A stretch of 64,000 bases of DNA from Candidatus Omnitrophota bacterium (GCA_018830005.1 JAHJTE010000001.1:449332-513331); one strand, 5' to 3'. Positions 45,221 through 59,842 are shown, numbered from the stretch's first letter. Made by a program: numbers and translations. Notes: generated by a model not told the origin, from the sequence alone.

Positions 45221-45250
45221 TTGACAAATGTATCTCTTTATGTTAGTATA
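45221..45250 (+). promoter_or_regulatory. sigma70-type promoter of the hydrogenase operon
   Basis: TTGACA at 45221-45226, a 17-18 nt spacer, then TAGTAT. Confidence 0.55.
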
Positions 45251-45251
45251 T

Positions 45252-45269
45252 TTGTGATTTTATTCACAA
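45252..45269 (+). promoter_or_regulatory. Rex operator (TTGTGAttttatTCACAA) overlapping the transcription start
   Basis: An 18-bp palindrome matches the Rex consensus TTGTGAA-N4-TTCACAA. A rex gene lies at 59174-59842. Confidence 0.65.
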
Positions 45270-45273
45270 AGTA

Positions 45274-46365
45274 TTGCCATCCCAATTCTTTGAGGTTTAC
45301 AAGGGCAATCCCCAGGCAACAATCCAAAGTTTAAATTTTATGCATTATCTATCTTCTGAAAGCCTCTCCAGATTTTTAGAAATCCTAAAAAATGACTATG
45401 AGGTCTACGCCCCTGTTAAAAAGGGAGATCAGCGTTTTTATAAGAGGTATACTGATTCTGGCGATTCTTTTATAATTGGTGAAGTGCGCTCATTTGAACC
45501 GCTAAAGTCATTTTTCTCTCGCGCCAGGGAAAAGGTTGCGGATGATTTCAAACCTGACATTCCGCATCATCGGGATAGGCCTCTTGCCATCGTAGGAGTA
45601 AAGGCCTGCGATCTAAAAGGTTTTAAGGTCCAAGACCATGTATTCAGAGACCACGATTATGAGGATCCCTTTTATCTTAAGGCACGCAAGGAAAATTTAA
45701 TTATCTCAGCTGATTGTACCTGTGCCATAGATACTTGTTTCTGCCTTGCCATGGGGATTAAGCCTTACCCCCAGGAAGACTTTGATATTAATCTTTCTCA
45801 AATCAGTAATGGTTTTATCGTAGAGGCTGGTTCGCGAAAAGGCGGCGAGCTTATTGACAAGAATTCTGCTCTTTTTGAAAAGGCAAGTCAGGCCTCTATT
45901 ACAGAGCGAGACCAGCAGAGGAGCAGGGTTATTAAGGAAGTCGAAAAAAATATTAAAGATAATTTTATTCCAAATCAAGGGTCTTTGGAAGGGATTATAG
46001 AAAAGAATTATGAATCCGATATCTGGGCTGATGAGGCTAAGACCTGCGTAGAATGCGGTGCATGTAATACTGTTTGTCCAACCTGTCATTGCTTCCTTCT
46101 CTATGACCAGAAGGATACAAGGGCCATGGCGCGTTTTCGTATTTGGGATTCATGTATGATAAAGGACTTTGCAAAGGTAGCGGGCGGTGCTAATCCTAGG
46201 TCAAAACTCTGGATGAGATTGAGAAACAGGTTCGAAAAGAAGTTCGATTTCTTTCCAAGGCTTGCCAATGTTTATGCATGCACAGGTTGCGGTCGCTGCA
46301 TATCTGCCTGTCCGGCAAAGATAGATATAAGAAAGGTTTTAAAGAGATTAGTAAAAGATGAATAA
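45274..46365 (+). CDS. AsrA / sulfhydrogenase-beta-like iron-sulfur subunit
   Basis: Cys clusters CTCAIDTCFC, CVECGACNTVCPTCHC and CTGCGRCISACP align with AsrA. The start may instead be ATG 45340. Confidence 0.8.
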   Translation: MPSQFFEVYKGNPQATIQSLNFMHYLSSESLSRFLEILKNDYEVYAPVKKGDQRFYKRYTDSGDSFIIGEVRSFEPLKSFFSRAREKVADDFKPDIPHHRDRPLAIVGVKACDLKGFKVQDHVFRDHDYEDPFYLKARKENLIISADCTCAIDTCFCLAMGIKPYPQEDFDINLSQISNGFIVEAGSRKGGELIDKNSALFEKASQASITERDQQRSRVIKEVEKNIKDNFIPNQGSLEGIIEKNYESDIWADEAKTCVECGACNTVCPTCHCFLLYDQKDTRAMARFRIWDSCMIKDFAKVAGGANPRSKLWMRLRNRFEKKFDFFPRLANVYACTGCGRCISACPAKIDIRKVLKRLVKDE

Positions 46366-47173
46366 TCCATACAGGCCTATTGAGGCAGAAGTCTTCGATA
46401 CAATCACAGAGACGCCTACAATAAAGACGATTAGATTCAAACCAAAAGAAGAGATAACGTTTCAAACAGGACAGTTCATAGAGTTGACTATTCCTGGTGT
46501 TGGAGAGGCCCCTTTTACTCCCTCATCGCGACCTTCTGTTAAAGATATAATGGAAGTTACTGTAATGAAAGTAGGCAAGGTTACTGAGAAGATTCACGAG
46601 TTGAAAGCGGGTGATATTATAGGAGTGAGGGGCCCTTTTGGGAAAGGATATCCTTTAGATGAATTTAGGGGAAAGGAAATCTTGGTTGTAGGCGGAGGTT
46701 GCGGCTTTGCGCCTTTAAGAAGTCTAATGTATTCTCTGTTTGAAAGAAGCGATGACTTTAAGAAATTATTCTTTAGAGGCGGCTGTAAAACATCTAAGGA
46801 GTTGGTATATAGAAGCGAGGCAGATGAGTGGGCCAAGAGAAAAGATTTAGATTTGAAACTTACAGTCGACAAAGGTGATAGTAGCTGGAAGGGACACGTG
46901 GGCCTGGTAACGACTATTTTAGATGATGTAAAGATGAATTATAAGCAAGGCATTGCGATTGTTTGTGGTCCTCCCATAATGATGAAATTTGCAACTATGA
47001 AATTGCTCGAAATGGGATTTGAGGAGAATAATATCTATCTTTCTATGGAAAAAAATATGTCCTGCGGCATTGGAAAATGCGGTCATTGTAGAATAGGCAC
47101 TTATTATGCATGCAAAGATGGGCCGGTCTTTCGTTATGACAAGATAAATAAATTCCATGAAATTTGGGAGTGA
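46358..47173 (+). CDS. AsrB / sulfhydrogenase-gamma / PyrK-like FAD-NAD(P)H oxidoreductase subunit with [2Fe-2S]
   Basis: VGEAPFT, GGGCGFAPLRS, and a C-terminal MSCGIGKCGHCRIGTYYACKDGPVF. Confidence 0.85.
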   Translation: MNNPYRPIEAEVFDTITETPTIKTIRFKPKEEITFQTGQFIELTIPGVGEAPFTPSSRPSVKDIMEVTVMKVGKVTEKIHELKAGDIIGVRGPFGKGYPLDEFRGKEILVVGGGCGFAPLRSLMYSLFERSDDFKKLFFRGGCKTSKELVYRSEADEWAKRKDLDLKLTVDKGDSSWKGHVGLVTTILDDVKMNYKQGIAIVCGPPIMMKFATMKLLEMGFEENNIYLSMEKNMSCGIGKCGHCRIGTYYACKDGPVFRYDKINKFHEIWE

Positions 47174-47174
47174 T

Positions 47175-47732
47175 ATGAGTACGAGTGCAGAAGAAATTCA
47201 TCAGGGAAAATTAAATATCAAGTCGGAAAAGGGTAAGGACAAGAGGCTTTTTATCGATCTTGATATCTGTTCTTCAGGTGAATGTAAGGACTGCGAAATA
47301 AATTGTAGTTATTTTTATCATCCAGATAATAATGGCATTATGTCAGTAGCAGAGCTAGCAACTTATGCTCTTGTCTGCAGAAGATGCGAAGAGCCGCACT
47401 GCGTTAATGCCTGTCCTGTCCAAGCCCTGGAACAGGATAAGGATAAGGATAAGTTTTTGATAAGGCATAATATGCGTTGCATAAGCTGTAAGTCTTGCTC
47501 CCATGCCTGTCCTTACGGCACGATATATCCAGAAAATGTCCCTTTGCTAATTCAGAATTGCGATTTTTGTCTTGATAGAAAAAATAAGCCGGATGAACCG
47601 TTGTGTATAAAGACCTGCCCTTACGGTGCCTTGGCCTTGAAGAAGAGCGATATCAAATTGGATAAGGATACTTTTTTAGTAGGTGATAATCTAATAGTCC
47701 ATTCTACACATTGGGATAGGGAAAAGGCGTGA
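47175..47732 (+). CDS. 4Fe-4S ferredoxin-domain protein (hydrogenase Fe-S subunit)
   Basis: Several CxxCxxCxxxCP-like clusters (CRRCEEPHCVNACP; CISCKSCSHACPYG). Confidence 0.75.
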   Translation: MSTSAEEIHQGKLNIKSEKGKDKRLFIDLDICSSGECKDCEINCSYFYHPDNNGIMSVAELATYALVCRRCEEPHCVNACPVQALEQDKDKDKFLIRHNMRCISCKSCSHACPYGTIYPENVPLLIQNCDFCLDRKNKPDEPLCIKTCPYGALALKKSDIKLDKDTFLVGDNLIVHSTHWDREKA

Positions 47733-48652
47733 TCTATATAATCTATTTTTTATTTTTTGGTTTTCTCTTAACAGCTGTTATCGGACTTCTGGCAAGCTGG
47801 ATAGATAGGAAGGTTACGGCCAGGGTTCAATATCGGGTTGGTCCGCCGATTCTGCAGCCATTGATAGATATCATAAAACTTCTCGGTAAGGAGACGCTTA
47901 TCCCAGGTAGGGCTCATAAGCTAACATTTTTGATGGCACCGGTTATTGGTATCGCGGCTGTTATATTAGTATCGACCTTACTATGGATGAATAATATCAG
48001 TCCTGATAAGGGCTTCCTGGGTGACCTTATAGTAGTATTATATTTATTGGTGATTCCTTCTTTGAGCATTGTTATGGGTGGCTTTGCATCAGGCAATCCG
48101 CTTGCAAGTTTAGGCGCTTCCAGAGAGATGAAGCTTGTATTAGGTTATGAACTTCCATTTTTGCTTGCAGTATTGGTTCCGATTATAAAATCTAATTTTT
48201 CTATTAGACTTGGCGAGATACTAGGTTTTCAGGCAGCTAGTGGTGTTATTATTGGGAGCTTCTCTGGCATCTTGGCCTTTATTGTTATCTTGATGTGTGT
48301 GCAGGCAAAGTTGGCCCTGGTTCCTTTTGATATACCAGAGGCAGAGACAGAAATAATAGGCGGTCCCTTGATAGAATATTCAGGTAGCGCACTTGCTATT
48401 TATAGACTCATGAAGAATATGTTCTTATTTGTATTGCCGTTTTTCTTGATGATATTATTCATGGGCGGGTTTAGATTTGATGGCATACACCTTTTATATG
48501 GTATTTTAAAATATGTTGGCATAGTTGCTCTTATAACAGTTATAAGAAATACTAACCCCCGCGTAAGGATTGATCAGGCGATTAGATTTTTTTGGGGTCC
48601 AATGACTATAATTGCTTTAGTTGCACTTGTCTTGGCATTGTTGGGGAAATAG
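47729..48652 (+). CDS. membrane subunit, NuoH/HycD/MbhM-like
   Basis: 307 aa, 8 transmembrane helices, complex-I subunit-1 family pattern. Confidence 0.8.
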   Translation: MIYIIYFLFFGFLLTAVIGLLASWIDRKVTARVQYRVGPPILQPLIDIIKLLGKETLIPGRAHKLTFLMAPVIGIAAVILVSTLLWMNNISPDKGFLGDLIVVLYLLVIPSLSIVMGGFASGNPLASLGASREMKLVLGYELPFLLAVLVPIIKSNFSIRLGEILGFQAASGVIIGSFSGILAFIVILMCVQAKLALVPFDIPEAETEIIGGPLIEYSGSALAIYRLMKNMFLFVLPFFLMILFMGGFRFDGIHLLYGILKYVGIVALITVIRNTNPRVRIDQAIRFFWGPMTIIALVALVLALLGK

Positions 48653-48656
48653 CAAA

Positions 48657-49079
48657 ATGAGTATGAAATTAAAGGCATTACTGAAATCTCCCTGGGTGTT
48701 TCACCTCTCGACCGGTAGTTGCAACAACTGCGATATCGAGATACTAGACTGTCTTACGCCCAGATTTGATGTGGAAAGATTTGGAATGCTCTTAGCAGGC
48801 AGTATTAGGCATGCTGATGTGCTTTTGGTTACTGGTTCAGGTAACAGAAAATCAATGCAGAGAGTAAAAAAATTGTACGAGCAGGTTCCAAAACCATGCC
48901 TTGTCGTTGCTATAGGAGAGTGTTCTTTGTCTCGAGGTATGTTTATTGACAGTTATAATTGCCCTATGCCTTTGGATAAAATTATACCAGTTGATGTTTA
49001 TATACCAGGCTGTCCTCCTAAACCAGAGGCGATTATTGCAGGTGTAGTAAAATTGATTGAGAAGGTAAAAAAGGGCTAA
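48657..49079 (+). CDS. [NiFe]-hydrogenase small subunit, NuoB/MbhJ-like
   Basis: GSCNNCDIE...GECS...PGCPP Cys motifs of the NuoB/HycG family. Confidence 0.85.
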   Translation: MSMKLKALLKSPWVFHLSTGSCNNCDIEILDCLTPRFDVERFGMLLAGSIRHADVLLVTGSGNRKSMQRVKKLYEQVPKPCLVVAIGECSLSRGMFIDSYNCPMPLDKIIPVDVYIPGCPPKPEAIIAGVVKLIEKVKKG

Positions 49080-49088
49080 AGAGAAAAA

Positions 49089-49562
49089 ATGAAAAGAGAA
49101 GAAGTCTTATCTGATTTAAAAGAAAGATTCAAAAAAGATATAGTTGATTTTTTTGATAAGCATTCCAAAAGGGTTTATATCGAGATTAAGCCTGAATCAT
49201 TGGTTAAGGTAGCCTCCTACATTTTTAAAGACTTAAAGGCGCGCTTTAATATTGCATCTGGACTAGATGCGCGAAATCATATGGAGATTTTATATCACTT
49301 TATATTAGAAGAAATAAATCTACTGATATCTCTAAGAGTAAAACTGGATAAGTCAAAACTGGAAATAGATTCACTCAGCAATGTCTTTGAGGGTGCGAAT
49401 TGGATTGAGAGAGAAATCCATGAACTTCTGGGTATAAATTTTAGGAATCACCCTGATTTGAGAAGACTTCTTTTGTCAGAGGATTGGCCTGAAGGCGTTT
49501 ATCCATTGAGAAGAGATTATAAAGAGTGGGATAAAAAGGCTATCCGGGATAGGGGAGTATAA
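49089..49562 (+). CDS. NuoC/HycE-N/MbhK-like subunit
   Basis: 157 aa matching the 30-kDa subunit family (EREIHELLGINF). Confidence 0.8.
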   Translation: MKREEVLSDLKERFKKDIVDFFDKHSKRVYIEIKPESLVKVASYIFKDLKARFNIASGLDARNHMEILYHFILEEINLLISLRVKLDKSKLEIDSLSNVFEGANWIEREIHELLGINFRNHPDLRRLLLSEDWPEGVYPLRRDYKEWDKKAIRDRGV

Positions 49563-50743
49563 TGGCGCGAACAATAGTTCCAATAGGACCATATCATCCG
49601 CTTCAAGAAGAGCCGGAATTTTTTACCCTGACAGTTGAAGGTGAAAGGGTAGTGGATGTTGATGTGCAGATAGGCTATAACCATAGGGGAATAGAAAAAC
49701 TCTCTGAGAGCAAGACATTTGACCAATCTACTTTTGTCATAGAGAGAATCTGCGGTATATGTTCTACAAGCCATCCATTTGCTTATACAAGGGCAGTAGA
49801 GGATATCATACCTATGGAGGTACCTCCTAGGGCAAAATATATAAGGACAATAATCGCCGAAGGCGAAAGAATACATTCGCATCTGTTATGGCTTGGGCTT
49901 GCCGGTCATTTCTTAGGATATAATACTGTTTATATGTGGGCCTGGAAGTTACGAGAAGAAATCTTAGATGTGATGGAAATATTATCCGGCAACAGAAATA
50001 ACTATGCTATGTTTAAGCCCGGCGGAGTAAGAAGAGATATAAAGCCTGAAGATATTCCGGGCGTCTTAAGCAAGATAGACTCTATTGTTCCTACTTTAAC
50101 AATGCTCAAGAAAGCTGTTATAGATGATCCTGTTCTTCATGCGCGTACCAAGGGAGTCGGGATTCTTACAAAAGAAGAGTCTATAGACTTTTGTGCGCTT
50201 GGGCCTACTGCGAGGGCATCAGGCGTTGGGCGAGACCTGAGAAAAGATTCTCCTTACGGAGCATATGAAGAAGTAGAATGGGACATGATAGTAACCCAGA
50301 ATGGCGATGTGTTTGATAAGGTAGTTGTCAGGATACTGGAGACATTTGAGTCGATAAAGATAATGAAGCACTGCCTATCAAATTTGCCAAAAGGTGAAAT
50401 AGACGCAAATATAAAGAGTATCCCGTCGGGTGAAGGTATTGGTCATATCGAGGCACCAAGGGGTGAATGTTTCCATTATGTAAGAAGCGATGGAACTAAT
50501 AGGCCAGTCCGACATAAAGTACGCGCACCAACCTTTATGAACCTGCCGACATATAAGGCGACTATTGTGGGTGAGACGATTTCTGATGCAACAATAATTT
50601 TAGCTGCTATAGATCCCTGCTATTGTTGTACGGAAAGGATGGCAGTGCGCAATAAGAAGGGTGAGAAGATGTATAACGGTCAGGATCTAGTTAGATTATC
50701 ACAGGATAAGACTAAACAGATTAGAAAGAAGATGGGTGTGTAG
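49562..50743 (+). CDS. group-4 [NiFe]-hydrogenase large subunit (MbhL/EchE-like)
   Basis: N-terminal RICGICSTSH and C-terminal DPCYCCTER Ni-binding motifs are both intact. A roughly 30-aa C-terminal extension is present for endopeptidase processing. Confidence 0.9.
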   Translation: MARTIVPIGPYHPLQEEPEFFTLTVEGERVVDVDVQIGYNHRGIEKLSESKTFDQSTFVIERICGICSTSHPFAYTRAVEDIIPMEVPPRAKYIRTIIAEGERIHSHLLWLGLAGHFLGYNTVYMWAWKLREEILDVMEILSGNRNNYAMFKPGGVRRDIKPEDIPGVLSKIDSIVPTLTMLKKAVIDDPVLHARTKGVGILTKEESIDFCALGPTARASGVGRDLRKDSPYGAYEEVEWDMIVTQNGDVFDKVVVRILETFESIKIMKHCLSNLPKGEIDANIKSIPSGEGIGHIEAPRGECFHYVRSDGTNRPVRHKVRAPTFMNLPTYKATIVGETISDATIILAAIDPCYCCTERMAVRNKKGEKMYNGQDLVRLSQDKTKQIRKKMGV

Positions 50744-52406
50744 GGATATGAATATGAGCGCTGAACTTTTCAGAATGGACAATCTATCCTTTTTCGTAAG
50801 TTTATTTATAGTTTTCTTCTCTTTGCTTACGATTATTTATTCCTTCGGATTCATGAAGGAGAGAAAAGGAAAGCTTAGCTATTACCTATATATACTACTG
50901 ACACTGATATCTTCCTTAGGTGTTGTTGTTTCGAATAATCTTGCATTGCTTGTTGTATTTTGGGGATTTTCCGGATTTCTTCTTTATCTTTTGATAGGTT
51001 TTGGTCAAACAAAGCGCACACCTTCCACTGCTAAAAAATCATTTATAATAATCGGCGCAACAGATGCATTTATGCTTTTGGGCTTGGCCTTTATCTGGCA
51101 TTTAGCAGGCTCGTTTAATATAGACAAGTTAAGCATTCCTCTAGATAATAGGCTTTCAGTTATTGCCTATCTAAGTCTTGCTGTAGGTGCCTTTGCTAAG
51201 GCAGGGGCTATGCCTTTTCATACATGGGTGCCAGACACTGCCGAAGATGCGCCTACCCCTGTTAGTGCGTTTTTACCTGCATCTTTAGATAAACTTCTTG
51301 GTATATATTTCCTGGCGCGAATCTCGCTGGATATCTTTCAGATGAATGCAGCCATGAATATGTTTTTAATGCTGCTGGGGAGTTTTACTATCGTGGCCGC
51401 GGTTATGATGGCACTTATGCAACATGATTTAAAGAGGCTTTTGGGTTATCATGCTGTAAGCCAGGTCGGATACATGGTTTTAGGTATAGGTACAGGCAGC
51501 CTTATTGGTATTGCAGGCGGCCTGTTTCATATGCTAAATAATGCTATATATAAATCCTGTTTATTTTTCTCTGGAGGTATAGTCGAGAAAAAAACACAGA
51601 CAACAGATTTGGAAAAATTAGGCGGCCTTGCCAAAATTATGCCCACTGCGTTTATTACGTTTTTAATAGCCTCATTCGCAATATCAGGTGTGCCGCCATT
51701 TAATGGCTTTGTTTCAAAATGGATGCTCTATCAAGGTATAATCGAGACTGCCCAAAGAGGTGGTTTTGTCTGGATAATATGCCTTATTGCGGCTATGTTC
51801 GGCAGCGCACTTACCTTAGCAAGCTTTATGAAACTAATACACGCTATATTTTTAGGTCAAGTCTCTAAAGAGCTCTCAATTGCAAGCAACAAGCAAAGGG
51901 ACATTGGTATTACTATGTATATTGCGCCTGTTGTACTTGCGGCCTTATGTGTTATCTTTGGCGTATTTGCATATAAGATACCGCTTAATATGTTTATCTT
52001 TCCTAGTTTAGGCCAAGATGTAGGATTTTCTGGGATATGGAATCCTGGTCTGGCTACTATTTTGATACTTCTAGGCATTCTCTTAGGTGTTCTAATTTAT
52101 TTTCTAGGTACGATAAAGACCGCGAGAGAATCTGAGGCCTTTATAGGAGGGGAGATACTAGAAAAACAGCCGGATATGAGGATTTCAGGAACTGAATTCT
52201 ATAATACGATCAAAAACATAGGTCCATTAAAGGTTATCTATAGATTAGCAGATAATAAGGTGTTTGATATTTATTCTGTTGGTGAAAAGATAACCCTAAC
52301 GTTTAATAAGATATTGCGCTATATTCACAATGGCATTCTTTCTTCCTATTTAGCATGGACCCTTTTAGGGATGATTGTTTTGTTCTACGTTTTATTGTTG
52401 AGGTAG
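50736..52406 (+). CDS. Mrp antiporter subunit D-like / NuoL-M-N family membrane subunit (MbhH-like)
   Basis: 556 aa, about 14 transmembrane helices, with the conserved WVPDA.D.PTPVSA motif. Confidence 0.8.
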   Translation: MCRDMNMSAELFRMDNLSFFVSLFIVFFSLLTIIYSFGFMKERKGKLSYYLYILLTLISSLGVVVSNNLALLVVFWGFSGFLLYLLIGFGQTKRTPSTAKKSFIIIGATDAFMLLGLAFIWHLAGSFNIDKLSIPLDNRLSVIAYLSLAVGAFAKAGAMPFHTWVPDTAEDAPTPVSAFLPASLDKLLGIYFLARISLDIFQMNAAMNMFLMLLGSFTIVAAVMMALMQHDLKRLLGYHAVSQVGYMVLGIGTGSLIGIAGGLFHMLNNAIYKSCLFFSGGIVEKKTQTTDLEKLGGLAKIMPTAFITFLIASFAISGVPPFNGFVSKWMLYQGIIETAQRGGFVWIICLIAAMFGSALTLASFMKLIHAIFLGQVSKELSIASNKQRDIGITMYIAPVVLAALCVIFGVFAYKIPLNMFIFPSLGQDVGFSGIWNPGLATILILLGILLGVLIYFLGTIKTARESEAFIGGEILEKQPDMRISGTEFYNTIKNIGPLKVIYRLADNKVFDIYSVGEKITLTFNKILRYIHNGILSSYLAWTLLGMIVLFYVLLLR

Positions 52407-52410
52407 TTAG

Positions 52411-52959
52411 ATGGCAGAGCTGTACTTGTTATTAATATTTATGATTATCGCTGCGATAATCGCCGTTGAAGTAGAGGATCTTCTTTCTTCGGTAATTGCA
52501 GTTGGTGCTGTAGGCTTAGGGCTTTCAATAGTTTTTTTGATACTCAAGGCACCTGATGTAGCCATTACACAGCTTGTTGTTGAGATATTGTGCCTTATTA
52601 TCCTGATAAGGGCGACATTGAAGAGGGATATTCCTTTTTCAACTACAGGCAGGTGGTTTTTTAATACACTTATTACAGTCTGTTTTATTGCAGTATTTCT
52701 GATGTTGGCTCACAAATGCTTAAAGGATATACCAGAATTTGGTTTTCCGATAATGCGGGTTGCAAAAACATATTTGTCACAAGGACTGAATAAGACAGGT
52801 GCCAGTAATCTCGTTGCTTCTGTAATACTTGATTTTAGGGCCTATGATACTTTGGGTGAGGCCACAATATTATTTACAGCTGTAGTGGGTGTTTTGGCGA
52901 TTGTGCGCGGCGTCGGCAGAAAGAAAGAAAAACAAATAATTAGGGAAGAGGATGAGTAG
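52411..52959 (+). CDS. MnhB-domain membrane subunit
   Basis: APDVAITQLVVE MnhB signature. Confidence 0.7.
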   Translation: MAELYLLLIFMIIAAIIAVEVEDLLSSVIAVGAVGLGLSIVFLILKAPDVAITQLVVEILCLIILIRATLKRDIPFSTTGRWFFNTLITVCFIAVFLMLAHKCLKDIPEFGFPIMRVAKTYLSQGLNKTGASNLVASVILDFRAYDTLGEATILFTAVVGVLAIVRGVGRKKEKQIIREEDE

Positions 52960-53407
52960 AGAACACGATAAAGGCATGACTCTGATTGTAAAGACGATTA
53001 CGCGTCTGACAGTAGGACTGATACTCCTTTACGGTATCTATATTATTTCGCATGGCCATGTATCGCCAGGAGGCGGATTTGCCGGAGGCGTTATCGTGGC
53101 ATTGAGCTTTATTCATCTTATGCTTGCTTATGGAAAGGAAGAGGCCTTCAAGCGATTGTCCAAATCAGCTGCCTCAATTTTTGAGAGTACGGGTGCAATA
53201 TTGTTTTTGGCTATTGCTCTACTTGGATTTAGCGGTGGTTACTTTTTCCTAAACTTTTTACCTAAAGGAGAGCCTTTCAGGCTATTTAGCGCTGGCACGA
53301 TTCCTTTAAGCAATATAGCCATAAGCCTAAAAGTAGGTGCAGGTCTTTTTGCAATTTTCGTTGCACTCGTATTGTTAAAATTGGATTCCAAAAAGGATAA
53401 AGAATGA
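52952..53407 (+). CDS. Mrp/Mbh small membrane subunit (MrpB C-terminal-like / MbhE-like)
   Basis: Transmembrane protein (GGGFAGGVIVALSF). Overlapping starts and stops with its neighbours. Confidence 0.6.
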   Translation: MSREHDKGMTLIVKTITRLTVGLILLYGIYIISHGHVSPGGGFAGGVIVALSFIHLMLAYGKEEAFKRLSKSAASIFESTGAILFLAIALLGFSGGYFFLNFLPKGEPFRLFSAGTIPLSNIAISLKVGAGLFAIFVALVLLKLDSKKDKE

Positions 53408-53739
53408 TTTATTTACTCTGTCTTTGTCTATTCTCAGTCGGACTTTATTGCATATTAAGGAAACGCAATATTATTAAGATTATTATTGGCATCGTCATAG
53501 CCGAATATGCAGTAAACCTATTTTTTATATTGATAGCCTTTAGGATGAATGGCCGCGCTCCGCTCTTTTCACCTGATGTGAACATAACAAATATGGTTGA
53601 TCCCTTACCGCAGGCATTGGTGTTGACAGCGATTGTAATTGGACTTGCGACCACTGCATTATTAGTAGCTATTGCTATGAGAATTTATGAGAAATACGGG
53701 ACATTTGATATAACAAAGATAAGGGAGCTTAGGGGATGA
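53404..53739 (+). CDS. MrpC/NuoK-like subunit
   Basis: 111 aa with 3 transmembrane helices. ATGA overlaps on both sides. Confidence 0.75.
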   Translation: MIYLLCLCLFSVGLYCILRKRNIIKIIIGIVIAEYAVNLFFILIAFRMNGRAPLFSPDVNITNMVDPLPQALVLTAIVIGLATTALLVAIAMRIYEKYGTFDITKIRELRG

Positions 53740-55241
53740 TGCAGTTAGAGAGTATAATACCGCTTTTTGTCGCTATTCCATTAGGAGGCGCGTTTCTAAT
53801 CTCGCTTCTCGGCAAAAGAATAAAATGGCTGCCGGATTGTTTTGGTGTAATAACAACGCTCCTTTTGTGTGGTCTGTCTTTGTTTAGCGTGCGCCTTTGT
53901 AGTACATTTGGAATACTTACCTATAATGTTGGTTCTTGGCTGCCGCCTATAGGCATAGGAATGGTTTTAGATGGATTGGCCTCATTTATGCTTGTGACTG
54001 TAAATTTGATTGCATGCTGTGTTACGGTTTATTCAATAAATTACATGGAAAGATTCACCGCTAAATGGAAATTTTATACATTGTTTCTTTTGATGCTAGG
54101 CGGGATGAACGGTGTGATTATAAGCGGAGACATATTTAATCTTTTTGTATTTTTAGAGATTGCCTCTGTGGCAAGCTATGCCTTGGTTGCATTCGGAACA
54201 GAGCGCCATGAACTTGAGGCAGCGTTTAAATATGCTGTTATGGGTACGGTAGCTTCGCTTTTTATTCTTTTGGGTATAGCATTTTTATACAGTTATACTT
54301 CTACACTGAATATGGCGGATATGTCAAGAATCTTGATGCTAAAAGGAACAGGTAATATTACCCTTTTGGTAAGCGTTCTCTTTATTATGGGATTCGGCTT
54401 GAAGGCAGCACTCGTTCCTTTCCATGCCTGGCTGCCAGATGCCCATCCTTCTGCACCCGCACCAATATCTGCTATGCTCTCTGGCGTATTAATAAAATCA
54501 CTTGGCATCTATGCCTTATGTAGAATATTCTACAATGTAATTGGTATAAGCCCTGCCATATCTTCAATATTAATGTTTTTAGGAACACTGTCTATGGTTA
54601 TTGGCGGCTATTTGGCTATTGGCCAATGGGATTTCAAACGACTCCTGGCATATTCATCTATAAGCCAGATAGGCTATATTGTTCTGGGTATTGGCCTGGG
54701 AACGCCATTAGGTATATTGGGTGGATTGTTTCACCTTTTTAACCATTCTATATTTAAGTCACTGCTCTTTTTGAATTCCGGAGCCCTAGAATATTCAACA
54801 GGCACACGCGATTTGCAGAAGATGGGAGGGCTTTCCAAGAGAATGCCTTTTACGAATGCAACGAGTCTCATAGGATCTATGTCCATTGCAGGCGTTCCAC
54901 CTTTTAATGGATTCTGGAGTAAACTACTTATTATAATTGCAGCAGTACAGGCGCAGAGATATGGATATGCATTTTGGGCTGTTTTGGTGAGTATATTGAC
55001 CTTGGCAATGTATACTAAGGTCCTGAAATACGCATTCTTTGGCAAATTAAAGGAAAGATTGAACAGGATAAAAGAGGTACCGTTTTTTATGAAGTTGTCT
55101 ATGGGTGTATTGGCATTTATATGTTTAGCAGGAGGACTCTTGCTTATTTCCGGCGAAGCCGGGTCTTTTCTTACTATGTCAACAGATGTTCTTTTAAATG
55201 GCACTGGATATGCGGCAATGGTTTTAAGGAATATACGATGA
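53736..55241 (+). CDS. Mrp antiporter subunit D / NuoN-like
   Basis: 501 aa with WLPDAHPSAPAPISA. Confidence 0.8.
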   Translation: MMQLESIIPLFVAIPLGGAFLISLLGKRIKWLPDCFGVITTLLLCGLSLFSVRLCSTFGILTYNVGSWLPPIGIGMVLDGLASFMLVTVNLIACCVTVYSINYMERFTAKWKFYTLFLLMLGGMNGVIISGDIFNLFVFLEIASVASYALVAFGTERHELEAAFKYAVMGTVASLFILLGIAFLYSYTSTLNMADMSRILMLKGTGNITLLVSVLFIMGFGLKAALVPFHAWLPDAHPSAPAPISAMLSGVLIKSLGIYALCRIFYNVIGISPAISSILMFLGTLSMVIGGYLAIGQWDFKRLLAYSSISQIGYIVLGIGLGTPLGILGGLFHLFNHSIFKSLLFLNSGALEYSTGTRDLQKMGGLSKRMPFTNATSLIGSMSIAGVPPFNGFWSKLLIIIAAVQAQRYGYAFWAVLVSILTLAMYTKVLKYAFFGKLKERLNRIKEVPFFMKLSMGVLAFICLAGGLLLISGEAGSFLTMSTDVLLNGTGYAAMVLRNIR

Positions 55242-55735
55242 AGAGCAGGATAATTTTATTTATAGTAGCGTTTGTGACTTGGTCCTTTTTGAACTGGGTG
55301 CCAGACTGGCAGCATCTTGTTACAGGCGTTTTTGTTTCCGGCCTTGTGGCTTATCTGACAGGTGATTTATTTATCCAGACGCCGGGAAAATTAAAACATC
55401 GCCTACGTTATTATTACTTTTTCTTTAATTATCTGCCCATATTCTTATGGGAAATAATTAAGGCCAATATAGATGTCGCCTATAGGGTTATACATCCAAA
55501 TCTGCCTATAAATCCTGGGATTGTGAAAGTAAAGACCAGTTTGAAGTCAGATACAGCCTTGACATTTTTGGCTAATTCGATAACGCTTACACCTGGTACT
55601 CTAAGCGTTGATATTGATAGAGATAATGGAATTTTGTATGTGCATTGGATTAACGTAGAGACAGAGGATATCGAATCTGCCACAAAGCGTATTGTGGGAC
55701 GTTTTGAAAAGATGCTGGCGAAAATTTTTGATTAG
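55238..55735 (+). CDS. MrpE-like subunit
   Basis: The start is ATG 55238, within an ATGA overlap with the preceding stop. It matches the MnhE family. Confidence 0.7.
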   Translation: MKSRIILFIVAFVTWSFLNWVPDWQHLVTGVFVSGLVAYLTGDLFIQTPGKLKHRLRYYYFFFNYLPIFLWEIIKANIDVAYRVIHPNLPINPGIVKVKTSLKSDTALTFLANSITLTPGTLSVDIDRDNGILYVHWINVETEDIESATKRIVGRFEKMLAKIFD

Positions 55736-55755
55736 GATAAGATTTTGGAGCAATA

Positions 55756-56142
55756 ATGAAAGATTCTAACAGGTTAAAGATAGTCAAATGGATTATAGGC
55801 GCAATTATCTTGACAGCCATTTTGGTCCTGATAATGATTCGGCCTATGCCCTGTCTTTTTCAAGCCGGGCTTATCTACGTTGAGTTTCTGTGTAGAGCGC
55901 TTTACATAATTATATTGGCCTGTTTCCTATGTCTTTACCGTATCTATCGAGGCCCAACCGGAGCTGACAGGATTGTTGCCATAGATATCTTGGGTATCAT
56001 GATTGTAGGATTCTGTTCATTATTGACTATAGCAACAGGTCGCCTCTGGTATATTGATATTGGTATAGCTTGGGCGCTTCAGAGTTTTATAAGCACGTTA
56101 GCACTTTCCAAATACTTGGAAGGAAGAGGCTTTGATGAATAA
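55756..56142 (+). CDS. MrpF-like subunit
   Basis: Small 3-transmembrane protein. Position in the Mrp gene order. Confidence 0.6.
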   Translation: MKDSNRLKIVKWIIGAIILTAILVLIMIRPMPCLFQAGLIYVEFLCRALYIIILACFLCLYRIYRGPTGADRIVAIDILGIMIVGFCSLLTIATGRLWYIDIGIAWALQSFISTLALSKYLEGRGFDE

Positions 56143-56470
56143 CATAATAGGACTGATATTTATAACGGTTGGTCTAATGTTTGATCTATTGGGATGCCTT
56201 GGGCTTGTACGGCTTCCGGATGTATATAATCGTCTGCAGGCTGCCACAAAATGTGTTACCCTAGGCACCTGTAGTATACTGTTTGGGACATTTCTCATTG
56301 TTGGATTTACTGCTGCAGGAATGAAATCACTTTTATGTATAATATTCCTTATCTTAACCTCTCCTGTGGCAGCGCATGCCATAGCCAGAGGTGCGCATCG
56401 CTCAGGTGTCAAGCTTTGGGATAAGAGCGTTGTTGATAAATACGCCCAAGATAAAGAGGGCGAGGTCTAG
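56132..56470 (+). CDS. MrpG-like subunit
   Basis: RLPDVYNRLQAATKCVTLG MnhG signature. Confidence 0.75.
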   Translation: MMNNIIGLIFITVGLMFDLLGCLGLVRLPDVYNRLQAATKCVTLGTCSILFGTFLIVGFTAAGMKSLLCIIFLILTSPVAAHAIARGAHRSGVKLWDKSVVDKYAQDKEGEV

Positions 56471-56472
56471 AG

Positions 56473-57087
56473 ATGAAATATCCTAAAATTAGAGAGTTGA
56501 TTGAGGCAATAAAGGCGCTTATTAAAGGACCTTATACGTCAAAATTTCCAAAACAGCCGCATCAACCACATCCGAATTTCAGAGGACAGCCGAAGTTTGA
56601 CGATAAAAAATGTGTTGGCTGTCTTGCCTGCGAAGAGGTCTGTCCGGTGGGAGCGATTGCTCATAGTGACGTAGATGCGACAGATGGTAAGCATAAGCGA
56701 ATTATAAGTCATTATACAGATACATGTATATTCTGTGGTCAGTGTGAGGCAGCTTGTATTGCTGATCATGAAGGTATAAAGTTATCCAATGATTGGGAGC
56801 TTTCATTCTTTGATAGGAGTAAGGCCGAAGAGAAAATAGAAAGAGAGTTGCAGGTTTGCGAAATCTGCGCTAAACCTATTGCCTGCAAAAAGCACCTGGC
56901 CTGGATTGCCGAAAGGATAGGAGAACTCAGTTTTTCAAGCCCCACACTTTATCTTACCCATCTTAAAAACCTTGGAATAGTTGATGAAAACATTACTTCT
57001 GTATTGAAAGACCAAGGACGTTCTGACCGAGTAAAAATTCTCTGTGCCGCCTGCAGGAGAGAAACTACCCTGACTACGAAAGAGTAA
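56473..57087 (+). CDS. 2x[4Fe-4S] ferredoxin subunit (NuoI/MbhN-like)
   Basis: CVGCLACEEVCPVGAI and CIFCGQCEAACIADH. Confidence 0.8.
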   Translation: MKYPKIRELIEAIKALIKGPYTSKFPKQPHQPHPNFRGQPKFDDKKCVGCLACEEVCPVGAIAHSDVDATDGKHKRIISHYTDTCIFCGQCEAACIADHEGIKLSNDWELSFFDRSKAEEKIERELQVCEICAKPIACKKHLAWIAERIGELSFSSPTLYLTHLKNLGIVDENITSVLKDQGRSDRVKILCAACRRETTLTTKE

Positions 57088-57138
57088 AAATAATAAATAG
57101 TTTAAAGGCAAAAAATCGCATAGCCTGAGGCATTATCT

Positions 57139-57594
57139 ATGCAAATGAAAGATATTTTCAAAGGAAAGGTTGTTGTTGTGGGTGTCGGTAATATCTTGCG
57201 TAGAGATGATGGCTTTGGTCCTGTTCTGATTGATAAGCTAAAAGCAAATACAAGTGTAGTATGTATTGATGCAGGTTCCTCTCTTGAAGGTTACGCTGGC
57301 AAAATTGCAAAAGAGAAGCCTGATACGATATTAATCGCTGACGCTGTGCATTTGGGGCTTGAACCAGGAAACTATGACATTTTGAAGTCATCTGAGATAG
57401 TAAAAGGTGGTTTAACTACGCATGATATTTCACCTAGAATGTTCCTTGACTATCTAAAAAAAGAAACAGGGGCAGATATATATATGCTGGGTATTCAACC
57501 AGAGGATGTTTCTTTTGGCGAGGGGTTATCTGAGAGCGTTAAAGGAGCCCTGGAAGAAATAGTGGGTTTAATAAGAGAGGCAGAACATGCATGA
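57139..57594 (+). CDS. hycI: hydrogenase maturation endopeptidase (HycI/HyaD family)
   Basis: VVVVGVGNILRRDDGFGPVLIDKL...ADAV. Confidence 0.85.
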   Translation: MQMKDIFKGKVVVVGVGNILRRDDGFGPVLIDKLKANTSVVCIDAGSSLEGYAGKIAKEKPDTILIADAVHLGLEPGNYDILKSSEIVKGGLTTHDISPRMFLDYLKKETGADIYMLGIQPEDVSFGEGLSESVKGALEEIVGLIREAEHA

Positions 57595-57829
57595 GTCACA
57601 TTTGATTGAGCCGATAATCAAAGGAATATCAGAGCACGCAAAAAAAGAAGGGGCCAAAAAAGTATCCAAGCTAATTCTAAAGATTGGAGAGCTGAATTGC
57701 CTAAATGAGGATTCGTTTAAGGCAACATTCTCTCTTCTGTCAAAAGGGACTATGCTTGATGGCGCTAAATTAGAGATTGTATTTTTCCCAGGCTCCAGGA
57801 TAGAGGTTGTATCCTTTGATGTGGAATAG
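57587..57829 (+). CDS. hypA: HypA-like protein lacking the C-terminal zinc finger
   Basis: The N-terminus MHESHLIEPIIKGISEHAKKEGAKKVSKLILKIGELNCLNEDS matches HypA. The ORF ends after 80 aa with no CxxC...CxxC. Confidence 0.6.
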   Translation: MHESHLIEPIIKGISEHAKKEGAKKVSKLILKIGELNCLNEDSFKATFSLLSKGTMLDGAKLEIVFFPGSRIEVVSFDVE

Positions 57830-57865
57830 AATTTTACCAATCTACATATAAGAGAAAGATAAACA

Positions 57866-59167
57866 ATGTGTTATGCAATTCCCGGAAAGGTAAAGGAAAT
57901 AGGCGAAAAATCAGTGCTGGTTGACTATTTTGGCGAGACAAGAAAAGCGATTAACGAATTTTACGATGTTCGTATAGGTGACTATGTCTGTGCCCAGGGA
58001 GGTTTTGTAATAAAAAAGGTTTCTCCTTCCGAGGCAGAGAGCACTCTCTCGGCCTGGCAGGAGCTTTTTTTCGAGCTTAAGCAAATAGATTTACGCCTTT
58101 CCAGATTAGATCTTAAAAATAAAGGGATAGATAAGAGACTTTCTTCAATACTGGATAATGCTTTAGAAAACAAAAGCCTGTCTTTAGAGGATTTACTGTA
58201 TCTATTCAATACAGAAAGCCGTTCTGGGATTGAACTGATTTATAAGACCGCTAATTTCCTTCGTCAAAAATACATTAAGAATTCCTGCTGTGTACATGGG
58301 ATAATTGAGATTTCAAATTATTGCACGCAGGGTTGCATGTATTGTGGTATATCGACTCATAACAAGGCTCTTGGCCGGTATAGAATGACTCATAAAGAAA
58401 TAGTTGATTCAGCCCTCCTGGCAATAGAGGAATTTGGATTTAAGGCCATCCTACTACAGAGCGGCGAAGATGCATTCTATACTGCTGATAGGCTTGCTGA
58501 TATAGTTGCGGAAATAAAGGCAAAGGCAGGCGTTCTTATCTGTATAAGTTTTGGCGAGATAGGTATTGATGGATTAGAAAAGCTTTATAAGGCTGGGGCA
58601 AGGGCAATCTTGATGCGTTTTGAGACTTCAAATCCAAAGATCTATGAAAGACTGCATCCTGGCAGGAGCTTGAATACGCGCTTAGACCACATTAAAAAGG
58701 CAGGGCAAATCGGTTATTTGATTATGACCGGTGGACTTATTGGATTGCCGGATCAGACCAGAGAAGATATTATAAACGATATATATCTGGCTAAGGAGTT
58801 ACAAGCTGAGATGTATTCCTTTGGTCCTTTTCTGCCGCATCCAGAGACGCCATTAGCTTCTAACTCTCCTCCTAATGAAGATGATGTATTGAAGGCCCTG
58901 GCATTAACTAGACTTATCGATCCAGAAAAGAGCAAGATCTTAGTAACTACTGCTTTCGAGACACTTTGTCCTGATGCCCGTAGGCATGGGCTTCTTGCAG
59001 GCGCAAATTCAGTAATGCTTAATGTAACCCCTATTAAATATAGAAAACAGTATTCAATTTATCCTAATAGGGCCTACGATAAAGAAGAAATAACGACTCA
59101 GATTAAAGAGACAATAGCACTTCTGCAATCTCTTGGCAGGGCCCCTACGGATTTAGGCGTGAATTAA
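57866..59167 (+). CDS. HypC (N-terminal 75 aa) fused to HydE-type radical SAM maturase
   Basis: MCYAIPGKVKEI...GDYVCAQGGFVI matches HypC, with the essential Cys2. The remainder carries CTQGCMYCG, YRMTHKEIVDSALLAIEEFGFKAILLQSGED, GLPDQTREDI, GPFLPHPETPLAS and GANSVMLNVTP, which match HydE. Confidence 0.85.
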   Translation: MCYAIPGKVKEIGEKSVLVDYFGETRKAINEFYDVRIGDYVCAQGGFVIKKVSPSEAESTLSAWQELFFELKQIDLRLSRLDLKNKGIDKRLSSILDNALENKSLSLEDLLYLFNTESRSGIELIYKTANFLRQKYIKNSCCVHGIIEISNYCTQGCMYCGISTHNKALGRYRMTHKEIVDSALLAIEEFGFKAILLQSGEDAFYTADRLADIVAEIKAKAGVLICISFGEIGIDGLEKLYKAGARAILMRFETSNPKIYERLHPGRSLNTRLDHIKKAGQIGYLIMTGGLIGLPDQTREDIINDIYLAKELQAEMYSFGPFLPHPETPLASNSPPNEDDVLKALALTRLIDPEKSKILVTTAFETLCPDARRHGLLAGANSVMLNVTPIKYRKQYSIYPNRAYDKEEITTQIKETIALLQSLGRAPTDLGVN

Positions 59168-59173
59168 TAGCAA

Positions 59174-59842
59174 TTGATAAAAACTATGAAAGTTAAAACA
59201 AAGTCAAAGGCCAGCTTTTCTCTTGAGACAATTAAACGTCTGAGTCTATACTTGAGAAATTTAAAGAGGGCCAAGGAGCGCAATGTTGATGTTATTTCCT
59301 CTGATAAGATAAGTCAGTTTCTTAATGTAACGCCTGTTCAGTTCAGAAAGGATTTGTCATACTTTGGAGGTTTTGGCAAAAGAGGCGTTGGCTATAACGT
59401 GGAAAAATTGATACTGGAGATCGAGAATATATTAGGAGTAAATAAGGAATGGAAGATTATTATGGTAGGTGTGGGAAGATTAGGAAGCGCCCTTTTAAGC
59501 TTTGAAGGCTTTTCTAAATTCAACATCAAAATAAGCTTTTGCTTTGATGTTGACGAAGAGAAAACGGGGAAAACAAAAAAGGGAGTAGAAATCCTGCATA
59601 TAAAAGATATGAAGAATATTATAAAAAATAATGATATTAAAATAGCAATAATTTCAACCCCGCCTGAGGCAGCGCAGGATGTCGCTGATGAGTTGGTGGA
59701 TGCAGGGATAAAAGGAATTTTAAATTTTGCACCCAGCATCCTTAAAGTCCCTGAATATGTCTCGGTCTCAAATGTTGATATGGCCTGTGAGTTGGAGAGT
59801 TTGATATTTTTTGCAAAGCGTAAACGCACCCTTAAGAGGTAA
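59174..59842 (+). CDS. rex: redox-sensing transcriptional repressor Rex
   Basis: IKRLSLYLRNL..., FSYFGGFGKRGVGYNV, Rossmann VGVGRLGSAL, and GIKGILNFAP. Confidence 0.85.
   Translation: MIKTMKVKTKSKASFSLETIKRLSLYLRNLKRAKERNVDVISSDKISQFLNVTPVQFRKDLSYFGGFGKRGVGYNVEKLILEIENILGVNKEWKIIMVGVGRLGSALLSFEGFSKFNIKISFCFDVDEEKTGKTKKGVEILHIKDMKNIIKNNDIKIAIISTPPEAAQDVADELVDAGIKGILNFAPSILKVPEYVSVSNVDMACELESLIFFAKRKRTLKR

Follow-up and report, generated by a model that had tools for sequence, protein, structure and literature searches.

Candidate Rex-Controlled Operon from Omnitrophota Combines a Sulfhydrogenase-Type NAD(P)H Module with a Group 4 [NiFe] Hydrogenase and an Mrp Antiporter

INTRODUCTION

Several classes of energy-converting [NiFe] hydrogenases are already recognized among the relatives of the system discussed herein. 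In the HydDB classification, enzymes of group 4b respire formate or CO and are linked to Mrp antiporter subunits, those of group 4d are ferredoxin-coupled and likewise Mrp-linked, and group 4g is a loose class to which no role has been assigned (PMC5037454). Two metagenome papers have also described gene clusters that use much of the same gene set. In the passages devoted to these clusters, one reports an "enigmatic" group 4 hydrogenase region in Saganbacteria that carries Mrp-like subunits, cooF, asrA, asrB, and a molybdopterin oxidoreductase and that is closest to Zixibacteria and Omnitrophica (PMC6349859), and the other names a "Mbh-Mrp-oxidoreductase type" and describes the function of its oxidoreductase as unknown (bioRxiv 10.1101/765248). 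Here we analyze a related locus in a 64,000-nucleotide stretch of DNA from a Candidatus Omnitrophota bacterium (GCA_018830005.1 JAHJTE010000001.1:449332-513331; hereafter the window). The window also matches a contig of a Candidatus Omnitrophota metagenome-assembled genome (GCA_043815545.1, JBDRIX010000020.1), and proteins identical to those encoded here are assigned to Omnitrophica/Omnitrophota in public sources. Within this window, positions 45221 to 61345 appear, on balance, to form a single Rex-repressed operon for a respiratory hydrogenase of three modules and the factors that mature it.

A first-pass annotation, prepared from the sequence of the window, had proposed that this arrangement is not a textbook one. 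That judgment is right, but the arrangement had already been noticed in the two metagenome papers cited above and is not a new discovery. Rather, its gene content supports the view that it is a modular dehydrogenase-Mbh-Mrp hydrogenase in which a sulfhydrogenase-type NAD(P)H module would replace the formate dehydrogenase or carbon monoxide dehydrogenase (CODH) of better known systems. What the present analysis adds is the specific NAD(P)H reading, a docking feature similar to that of formate hydrogenlyase (FHL), near-universal synteny within the clade of the large subunit, a conserved Rex circuit, and the occurrence of the operon in a sulfate reducer that we take to be cultivated (Desulfosarcina variabilis str. 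Montpellier).

RESULTS AND DISCUSSION

Organization of the Operon

Twenty-one genes are encoded on the plus strand between positions 45340 and 61345, and neighboring genes either overlap or are separated by gaps of no more than ~57 base pairs (bp). The order is an asrA-like gene, an asrB-like gene, a gene for a cooF/hycB-like ferredoxin, mbhMJKL, a complete mrp set, a hycF-like mbhN, hycI, hypA, a hypC::hydE fusion, rex, and hydG (Table 1). Both Pfam domains and homology agree with the first-pass assignment of an AsrA-like Fe-S protein, an AsrB/PyrK-like flavin adenine dinucleotide (FAD)-[2Fe-2S] protein, and a ferredoxin-like protein to the head of the operon. A TTG codon at 45274 was considered as the start of the asrA-like gene and was rejected in favor of the ATG at 45340, which is indicated by the public gene call and by an alignment of homologues.

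The asrA-like gene overlaps the asrB-like gene by 8 bases, the latter overlaps the ferredoxin gene by 17 bases, and the ferredoxin gene overlaps mbhM by 4 bases. Because these three genes overlap with each other and with mbhM, their separate transcription is unlikely. The proposal that they precede the hydrogenase subunits as part of one unit is therefore backed by the overlapping reading frames, and also by two scans of related loci described below, in which 58 of 60 and 37 of 37 loci keep the three genes attached to those of the hydrogenase. Domain and NCBIfam scans revealed no siroheme-containing AsrC among the 21 operon genes, as had been noted at the outset, and no catalytic domain of a formate dehydrogenase or CODH is encoded by any of them.

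The Putative NAD(P)H Input Module

The closest solved structures for the first two proteins of the operon are subunits of sulfhydrogenase I from Pyrococcus furiosus. The AsrA-like protein matches the beta subunit (PDB 9nez_B) with an E value of 7.7e-49 over residues 4-337, and the AsrB-like protein is homologous over its full length to the gamma subunit, which binds NADPH (PDB 9nez_C; E = 3.4e-55, residues 3-262). Among 108 non-identical orthologues, the AsrA-like protein has 15 cysteines that are invariant or nearly so. A check for FAD- and NAD(P)-binding motifs in 46358-47173 had been suggested in the first-pass annotation, and we found that these motifs are present along with a [2Fe-2S] motif and that they are conserved in 107 orthologues. 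Specifically, the [2Fe-2S] ligands C236/C241/C244/C252 and the segment GGGcGfAPlRS, which carries the GGxGxxP nucleotide-binding motif, are invariant or nearly so.

The top NCBIfam models are ShyB, HydB, and AsrA for the AsrA-like protein and AsrB and HydG for the AsrB-like protein, but the scores fall below the equivalog cutoffs (ShyB, 191.9 versus 690; HydG, 186.5 versus 650; AsrA, 127.1 versus 323; AsrB, 234.7 versus 288.6). Because the scores are well below these cutoffs, the two proteins are regarded as homologues rather than orthologues of the corresponding enzymes. The third protein carries 16 cysteines that are each conserved at 0.99-1.00 among 71 orthologues, and its PDB matches include AorA, HycB3/4 of HDCR, and HycB of FHL. 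It belongs to the class of ferredoxins that wires catalytic modules together.

Other identities for these proteins were evaluated and set aside. The locus is not a misplaced group 3b sulfhydrogenase, given that its large subunit belongs to group 4 and that true group 3b operons in this phylum look different. Furthermore, no group 3 small or large subunits are encoded beside the beta-gamma pair, where the adjoining genes are those of group 4 subunits. An AsrABC sulfite reductase is ruled out by the missing AsrC in the operon and by the AsrA and AsrB scores below the equivalog cutoffs. Recent duplication of the module from the group 3b enzymes of the phylum itself is not supported, since the identity of the AsrA-like and AsrB-like proteins to their beta and gamma counterparts in a group 3b operon of another member of the Omnitrophota is just 31% and 42%. 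Finally, the Fdh3 enzyme of Thermococcus onnurineus was ruled out as a precedent for a portable beta-gamma module because its NADP subunit was modeled on NfnI, which is a member of another family.

The Hydrogenase Core and a Possible Docking Site on MbhN

The first-pass placement of the large subunit in group 4 holds. MbhL retains both of the cysteine pairs for the NiFe site, which occur in the segments RICGICSTSH and DPCYCCTER, and its best solved homologues are MbhL of P. furiosus (6cfw_L, E = 1.7e-91) and HycE of Escherichia coli (7z0s_E, E = 7.8e-82). The complex I subunit Nqo4 and the sulfur reductase subunit MbsL rank behind these two, and large subunits of groups 1-3 match at the N-terminus only. 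By these criteria, MbhL is a true group 4 [NiFe] large subunit.

The top PDB match for MbhN is HycF of E. coli FHL (7z0s_F, E = 8e-18), and the match to P. furiosus MbhN is weaker (E = 5e-10). Four cysteines near the C-terminus of this protein (C129, C132, C191, and C194) are invariant among 38 orthologues. In E. coli FHL, the extension of HycF in the region of this quartet contacts HycB (PMC9474812). By analogy, the HycB-like protein may dock on MbhN as it does in FHL, and the MbhN quartet is the most specific indication of such an interaction.

Predicted Promoter, Rex Operator, and Rex Circuit

The first-pass annotation had also reported a promoter of the form TTGACA-17/18-TAGTAT followed directly by a near-perfect Rex box. 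A direct reading of the sequence places TAGTAT at 45244-45249 and a TG dinucleotide at 45241-45242, which makes this an extended -10 element with a spacer of 17 nucleotides. The site scores 10/12 with a TG flag in a promoter scan, although the region shows no overall enrichment of promoter-like sites (63 found versus 56.8 expected). When orthologous loci were aligned by eye, the TTGACA and TGn-TAnnAT pair was seen to be kept upstream of the box and the sequence between them to diverge. On this alignment, the predicted promoter and box are a phylogenetic footprint.

The box itself, TTGTGAtTTTATTCACAA (45252-45269), deviates from the 18-bp Rex consensus TTGTGAANNNNTTCACAA, as quoted in PMC5317091, at a single site (position 7). 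Its palindrome, TTGTGA-N6-TCACAA, has one exact match in the 64 kb of the window versus 0.01 expected from shuffled sequences, and allowing up to two mismatches yields just two more matches, which is the level expected by chance. A chance palindrome is ruled out by this expectation and by the enrichment of boxes in related loci. No Rfam match was found in the operon leader.

The rex gene was predicted to reside within the maturation cluster, and it is indeed located there, between the hypC::hydE fusion and hydG. Its identity is unambiguous (Table 1), and its product pairs a winged-helix DNA-binding N-terminus with a Rossmann NAD(H) domain. Because rex lies in the operon that it would control, the circuit is predicted to be autoregulated. 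In 46 of 78 related loci, rex is located directly upstream of asrA on the same strand. Among the 78 asrA upstream regions, 17 from loci wherein rex does not abut this gene contain a perfect box, which is located at a distance of 44-184 bp from asrA. Overall, the 29 kb of sequence upstream of asrA holds 17 perfect boxes versus one in the remaining 1.1 Mb of locus sequence, which amounts to a ~600-fold enrichment. In operons led by rex, a near-perfect box, or often a tandem pair of them (21 bp apart), is located just upstream of rex. Nearly all boxes with no more than one mismatch in the metagenome loci are upstream of rex or asrA or just past mbhN. From this conserved placement of the box and of rex, which agrees with the Rex site proposed initially, we infer that the operon is under Rex control. 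There is also precedent for Rex-controlled hydrogenases that oxidize NADH, as exemplified by the Rex-linked [FeFe] hydrogenase of Caldithrix (PMC5317091).

An extra perfect Rex box is found just downstream of mbhN in six related loci, which are listed here by locus and position (L107:12500, L112:17871, L116:17871, L129:17999, L142:13984, and L162:17889). These boxes imply that a further Rex-controlled gene or operon follows the hydrogenase in those lineages.

Conservation of the Arrangement among Relatives

Related genomes and metagenome contigs with this layout number well over one hundred. With the AsrA-like protein as the seed, a scan of genomes yielded 80 species-level loci that are mostly from Omnitrophota, with other loci labeled as D. 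variabilis str. Montpellier, Desulfococcus, Methylomirabilales, Nitrospiraceae, Spirochaetota, and Sumerlaeota. Metagenomes were scanned independently with MbhL as the seed, which yielded 80 loci at 82-89% identity. All of these loci were mapped by tblastn with the proteins of the window alone. In these maps, asrA, asrB, cooF, and mbhM are directly adjacent. Among AsrA-seeded loci with enough downstream sequence, asrB-cooF-mbhM follow asrA in 58 of 60 cases and mbhL is present in 48 of 52. The exceptions either contain runs of N (L006, L013, and L039) or are rearranged or possibly chimeric (L005, which L003 apparently resembles, and L067). The converse search gives the same picture, with asrA-asrB-cooF located upstream in all 37 of the MbhL-seeded loci that have at least 4.4 kb of upstream sequence.

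The membrane arm is more variable. In the Spirochaetota-like loci L079 and L138, and also in L140, the mrp genes have split off and are transcribed divergently, and the asrA-asrB-cooF genes remain with mbhMJKL-N. Three antiporter-like subunits are encoded in L025, L026, L046, L109, L160, and L166, the last of which adds a PhoU-like gene after mbhL. In addition, some loci (L014, L054, L112, L116, L129, L134, and L162) carry a second, plain group 4 cluster directly upstream of rex or asrA that does not include an AsrAB/CooF module. The large subunit of this adjoining cluster is more distant (~45% identity). The side-by-side occurrence of the two types suggests that the two enzymes use different electron donors.

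The operon is also present, at 60-81% protein identity, in the locus labeled D. variabilis str. Montpellier (L073). Because we take this strain to be cultivated, the hypothesis presented below is open to bench testing now.

Proposed Function of the Hydrogenase Complex

We tentatively propose that the operon encodes a widespread ion-motive NAD(P)H:proton oxidoreductase, or a "complex I" that would reduce protons rather than quinone, in which an FNR-type module has been independently recruited onto the Mbh/Mrp scaffold and whose synthesis is governed by an autoregulated Rex circuit. We hold this broad reading with slightly less than even confidence, and the narrower one of a Rex-repressed, three-module hydrogenase, which is set out next, is somewhat more likely than not. 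The first module, for electron input, would be a flavin- and Fe-S-containing NAD(P)H dehydrogenase homologous to the beta-gamma half of sulfhydrogenase I. In this unit, the AsrB-like protein is expected to bind NAD(P)H, FAD, and one [2Fe-2S] cluster, and the AsrA-like protein is expected to carry about three [4Fe-4S] clusters. The HycB/CooF-type ferredoxin with four clusters would then wire the input unit to the core by docking on MbhN in the manner of HycB on HycF. The second module, the core, would be a group 4 [NiFe] hydrogenase composed of the HycF-like MbhN, MbhJ, MbhK, MbhL, and the anchor MbhM. The third, an Mrp antiporter that is complete and includes two antiporter-like subunits, is presumably devoted to ion translocation.

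Electrons in such a complex would move from NAD(P)H to FAD, the [2Fe-2S] cluster, the AsrA-like protein, the HycB-like protein, MbhN, the MbhJ cluster, and finally the NiFe site, where H2 would be made. Because the NAD(P)H/H2 couple is near equilibrium, the Mrp module might either conserve or spend ion-motive force. Perhaps it conserves a little energy when H2 is low, or perhaps an ion gradient is used to drive the formation of H2 from NADH. When the NADH/NAD+ ratio is low, Rex would occupy the operator that overlaps the transcription start, and a rise in NADH would free this site. The enzyme would be made when reduced pyridine nucleotides need an outlet. Derepression by high NADH fits an NADH-disposing role, and the same reasoning has been applied to Caldithrix (PMC5317091).

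The first-pass annotation had described an NAD(P)H-linked, ion-translocating [NiFe] hydrogenase that is regulated by the NADH/NAD+ ratio. This description stands at the level of sequence, and the parts that concern the donor, the direction, and Rex binding are best worded conditionally. More broadly, what the sequence shows is the content of the genes, their homology, the cofactor motifs, the compactness of the operon, and the conservation of both synteny and the operator; the physical assembly of the complex, its donor, the direction of its reaction, the ion that it translocates, and Rex binding are what we infer.

Several considerations weigh against this proposal. The production of H2 from NADH is endergonic under standard conditions, and H2 evolution needs low H2 or an input of energy. 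The reaction nears equilibrium or turns favorable at the low H2 concentrations of syntrophic habitats, especially if it draws on the more reduced NADPH pool. Also, the AsrA-like and AsrB-like proteins form a clade of their own, far below the equivalog cutoffs and with low identity even to group 3b subunits (see above), and their substrate could differ. The basic residues of a K-T-S-K stretch in the AsrB-like protein align with an R..K stretch of the NADPH-specific gamma subunit, which weakly hints at NADPH, a compound that Rex does not sense directly. There is no recognizable box in 12 of 17 MbhL-seeded loci that do not have an upstream rex gene, and both rex and a box are missing in the vicinity of the Desulfosarcina operon. 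Lastly, the Mrp-linked Mbh enzymes of Omnitrophota have been classed as group 4g and assumed to oxidize ferredoxin, and the upstream module is not mentioned in the sections of those papers that treat these enzymes (PMC8542988, PMC9324843).

Alternative Explanations

The alternative that survives best, which we nevertheless consider unlikely, is that the operon encodes an ordinary ferredoxin-dependent Mbh along with a separate soluble NAD(P)H:ferredoxin-type oxidoreductase. The AsrA-like, AsrB-like, and CooF-like proteins would constitute the latter enzyme, which would be co-expressed to balance the two pools without being attached to the hydrogenase. In its favor, the membrane-bound hydrogenase (MBH) of P. 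furiosus accepts ferredoxin directly and group 4g has been listed as putatively ferredoxin-coupled (PMC5037454, PMC8542988). Moreover, sulfhydrogenase beta-gamma modules are soluble, and the case for contact between the module and the core is one of analogy. However, the genes of the module are translationally coupled to each other and right into mbhM by the overlaps noted above, the module accompanies this MbhL clade in every one of the 37 informative loci, and it remains with mbhMJKL-N where the mrp genes have moved. Likewise, MbhN carries the HycF-type extension that contacts HycB in FHL, and several genomes have plain group 4 clusters next door.

Next in likelihood, and again improbable, is that the same complex operates in the direction of H2 uptake. 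The proposed NAD(P)H:proton oxidoreductase would then be an energy-conserving, ion-pumping H2:NAD(P)+ oxidoreductase whose reduced pyridine nucleotides could go, for instance, into CO2 fixation. According to textbook thermodynamics, the reduction of NAD(P)+ by H2 is exergonic under standard conditions. The pertinent passages of earlier reports likewise describe a Wood-Ljungdahl pathway in some Omnitrophota with an Mrp-linked Mbh (PMC8542988) and term group 3b enzymes with the same module bidirectional (bioRxiv 10.1101/765248). In opposition to this idea, Rex derepresses its targets at high NADH, which would suit an NADH consumer rather than a producer (a logic also applied in PMC5317091), and the group 4 enzymes characterized to date evolve H2 (PMC5037454).

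It is far less probable that the AsrAB-like pair is a sulfite or polysulfide reductase module, so that sulfur reduction, and not NAD(P)H, would be coupled to H2 or to ion flux. AsrB is the top NCBIfam model for the second protein (234.7 bits), and sulfhydrogenases reduce elemental sulfur in vitro according to work cited in the part of PMC8542988 that deals with them. Nonetheless, none of the 21 operon genes encodes an AsrC-type siroheme subunit, and asrA, asrB, cooF, and mbhM directly abut in the tblastn maps of related loci. Both proteins also score below the equivalog cutoffs (127 versus 323 for AsrA and 235 versus 289 for AsrB), their nearest solved homologues are the NADPH-side subunits of sulfhydrogenase I, and Rex control points toward pyridine nucleotides.

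Equally remote is the notion that a CRP/FNR-family regulator, and not Rex, binds the palindrome, whose core TGTGA-N6-TCACA fits the CRP consensus as well. However, conservation extends to the outer T and A of the Rex consensus, the overlap of the site with the transcription start is what is expected for a repressor, the boxes shift to a location upstream of rex where rex leads the operon, and the repeated physical linkage with rex, both in the window and in the 46 of 78 loci where rex abuts asrA, makes Rex by far the better candidate.

Table 1. Predicted features of the hydrogenase operon and its control region (positions are those of the window)
Feature	Position	Strand	Basis or remarks
Sigma-70-type promoter	45221..45249	+	TTGACA 45221-45226, 17-nucleotide spacer, extended -10 TGtTAGTAT
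Rex operator (predicted) TTGTGAttttatTCACAA	45252..45269	.	begins 3 nucleotides past -10, overlaps predicted transcription start
AsrA / sulfhydrogenase-beta-like Fe-S subunit, 341 amino acids	45340..46365	+	Fer4_22
AsrB / sulfhydrogenase-gamma / PyrK-like FAD, NAD(P), [2Fe-2S] subunit, 271 amino acids	46358..47173	+	FAD_binding_6, NAD_binding_1, DHODB_Fe-S_bind
CooF/HycB-type polyferredoxin, four [4Fe-4S] motifs, 191 amino acids	47157..47732	+	Fer4_11
MbhM, NuoH/HycD-like membrane anchor	47729..48652	+	PF00146, 1.4e-64
MbhJ, NuoB-like hydrogenase small subunit	48657..49079	+	PF01058; start per public gene call
MbhK, NuoC-like	49089..49562	+	PF00329
MbhL, [NiFe] large subunit, group 4	49562..50743	+	PF00346, PF00374
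MbhH / MrpA N-terminal, antiporter-like subunit 1	50754..52406	+	PF00361; NuoL- and MrpA-like models
MbhD/E fusion, MbhF (MnhB), MbhG (NuoK/MrpC-like)	52411..53739	+	PF13244 with PF20501, PF04039, PF00420
MrpD, antiporter-like subunit 2	53736..55241	+	PF00361 1e-70; MrpD models
MrpE, MrpF, MrpG	55238..56470	+	PF01899, PF04066, PF03334
MbhN, HycF-like/NuoI-like 2x[4Fe-4S] subunit with C-terminal CxxC...CxxC quartet	56473..57087	+	PDB and orthologue alignment
HycI endopeptidase and short HypA (80 amino acids)	57145..57829	+	PF01750, PF01155
HypC::HydE-like radical-SAM fusion	57866..59167	+	PF01455 with PF04055
Rex, redox-sensing repressor	59174..59842	+	NF003995 262.5 bits versus cutoff 126; PF06971 (Put_DNA-bind_N) and PF02629 (CoA_binding)
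HydG radical-SAM enzyme	59846..61345	+	TIGR03955 463 bits versus cutoff 312; 4wcx_A E 3.9e-134

Maturation Genes and a HypC::HydE Fusion

The distal part of the operon encodes maturation factors with several unusual characteristics. The HypA protein (57587-57829) aligns with positions 1-68 of the 112 in its Pfam profile, retains the N-terminal MHE motif, and lacks the C-terminal zinc-finger region. Its length of 80 amino acids recurs in all related loci inspected (L089, L109, L121, L144, L156, and L166-L168). The gene that follows encodes a fusion whose PDB matches are HydE (7o1o_A, E = 2.5e-72) and HypC (2z1c_A, E = 3e-7). This HypC::HydE family includes at least 120 clusters, each with both domains, and our literature search found no report of a HypC-HydE fusion.

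In the genomic contexts inspected, including those of L163-L168, L109, L121, L144, and L156, the fusion gene is located after hycI, or after hycI and the gene for the 80-residue HypA, at the end of a [NiFe] hydrogenase operon. These operons are of the group 4 type described here or of the group 3b type, and rex and/or hydG are often next. Locus L167 additionally contains a separate cluster of HydF, HydG, and a free HydE-like protein (names inferred from Pfam domains), which suggests that the fusion is a distinct paralogue tied to [NiFe] operons. In the sister lineages where rex leads the operon, HypA is followed by a protein of 356 amino acids and then by open reading frames (ORFs) of 72 and 337 amino acids that resemble free HypC and HypD, as judged from a look at their N-terminal sequences.

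The C-terminus of HydG (60980-61090) also departs from expectation. The canonical auxiliary-cluster motif CTACYR is present as CTAGYRCGRTGKC, wherein the second cysteine of the CxxC is changed to glycine. Extra cysteines occur 3 and 9 residues later, and the third cysteine (FCKLNA) is kept in a comparison with HydG of Thermoanaerobacter italicus. Given this genetic setting, HydE- and HydG-type radical-SAM chemistry may take part in the maturation of the [NiFe] cofactor. A role for such enzymes in [NiFe] cofactor assembly is potentially a more novel question than the hydrogenase operon itself.

Other Features of the Window

A domain scan of the upstream stretch from 11.6 to 28 kb revealed solely defense and housekeeping genes, with no hyp genes among them. 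Positions 11632-22949 are likely to be a defense island with genes for a Vsr endonuclease, two C-5 cytosine methylases, an HNH protein, a DEAD-box helicase, a 743-amino-acid protein that has no Pfam match, and a 911-amino-acid helicase with an MrfA-type zinc-binding domain. The ORFs at 29471-31024 are closely preceded by a c-di-GMP-I riboswitch (29301-29420; Rfam RF01051, 53.3 bits versus a gathering score of 35). Downstream of the hydrogenase operon, and not belonging to it, an ORF of more than 846 amino acids (61462-64000) runs off the end of the window and exhibits an N-terminal hydrophobic segment and repeat-like sequence of the beta-propeller type.

Implications

The operon affects how the energy metabolism of a whole phylum is modeled, even though its design principle is familiar. 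Metabolic reconstructions of Omnitrophota and other candidate phyla that carry "group 4g" enzymes assume ferredoxin as the donor, and a change to NAD(P)H would alter the calculated redox balance, H2 yields, and ATP gains. If our proposal is correct, then fermenters and syntrophs would be able to dispose of NAD(P)H as H2 and, depending on H2 pressure, to gain or spend ion-motive force in the process, with the NADH/NAD+ ratio governing synthesis of the enzyme. The repertoire of energy-converting hydrogenases would gain a direct, ion-coupled link between the NAD(P)H pool and H2. The enzyme would also exemplify, in an extant organism, the grafting of an NADH-input module onto an Mbh scaffold, which bears on the origin of complex I.

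Comparison with Known Systems

The "enigmatic" and Mbh-Mrp-oxidoreductase types of Saganbacteria and Elusimicrobia use the same vocabulary of hydrogenase, Mrp-like, cooF, asrA, and asrB genes as the operon examined here. In contrast, they include an unclassified molybdopterin oxidoreductase that is absent from our locus. The passages in which they are presented leave their function open and describe neither Rex control nor HycF-type docking.

The group 4b clusters that combine a formate- or CO-respiring dehydrogenase with Mbh and Mrp, together with the group 4a FHL of E. coli, share with our operon the path from a HycB/CooF-type ferredoxin through a HycF-like subunit to a core with NuoB- and NuoD-like subunits (PMC5037454, PMC9474812). 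Ion coupling by Mrp or antiporter-like subunits and the HycF-type cysteine quartet are also held in common. The systems differ at the point of electron input, which is a molybdopterin formate dehydrogenase or CODH in the known clusters and an FNR-fold flavoprotein with a sulfhydrogenase beta-gamma-type Fe-S protein in ours. The potential of NAD(P)H, the presumed donor, is much higher than that of formate or CO, which would leave the energetics near equilibrium.

Sulfhydrogenase I of P. furiosus (group 3b, 9nez) provides full-length homologues of both input subunits, and the Fe-S, FAD, and NAD(P) motifs are kept. In that enzyme, however, the pair joins the delta and alpha subunits of group 3, whereas here it would join a membrane-bound group 4 enzyme by way of an extra polyferredoxin. 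P. furiosus MBH (group 4d, 6cfw) offers the closest solved large subunit and has in common with our system the MbhA-N-type subunit set and an Mrp-derived membrane arm. It differs in taking electrons directly from ferredoxin and in having one antiporter-like subunit and a short MbhN, compared to the two antiporter-like subunits, HycF-like MbhN, and dedicated input module predicted here.

A further comparison is with complex I. Both systems appear to link an NAD(P)H-oxidizing flavoprotein through an Fe-S chain to a core of NuoB/C/D/H/I-type subunits and antiporter-like subunits. However, complex I employs NuoEFG with flavin mononucleotide and delivers electrons to quinone, whereas the hydrogenase complex is predicted to use an unrelated FNR fold with FAD and to deliver electrons to protons at a NiFe site.

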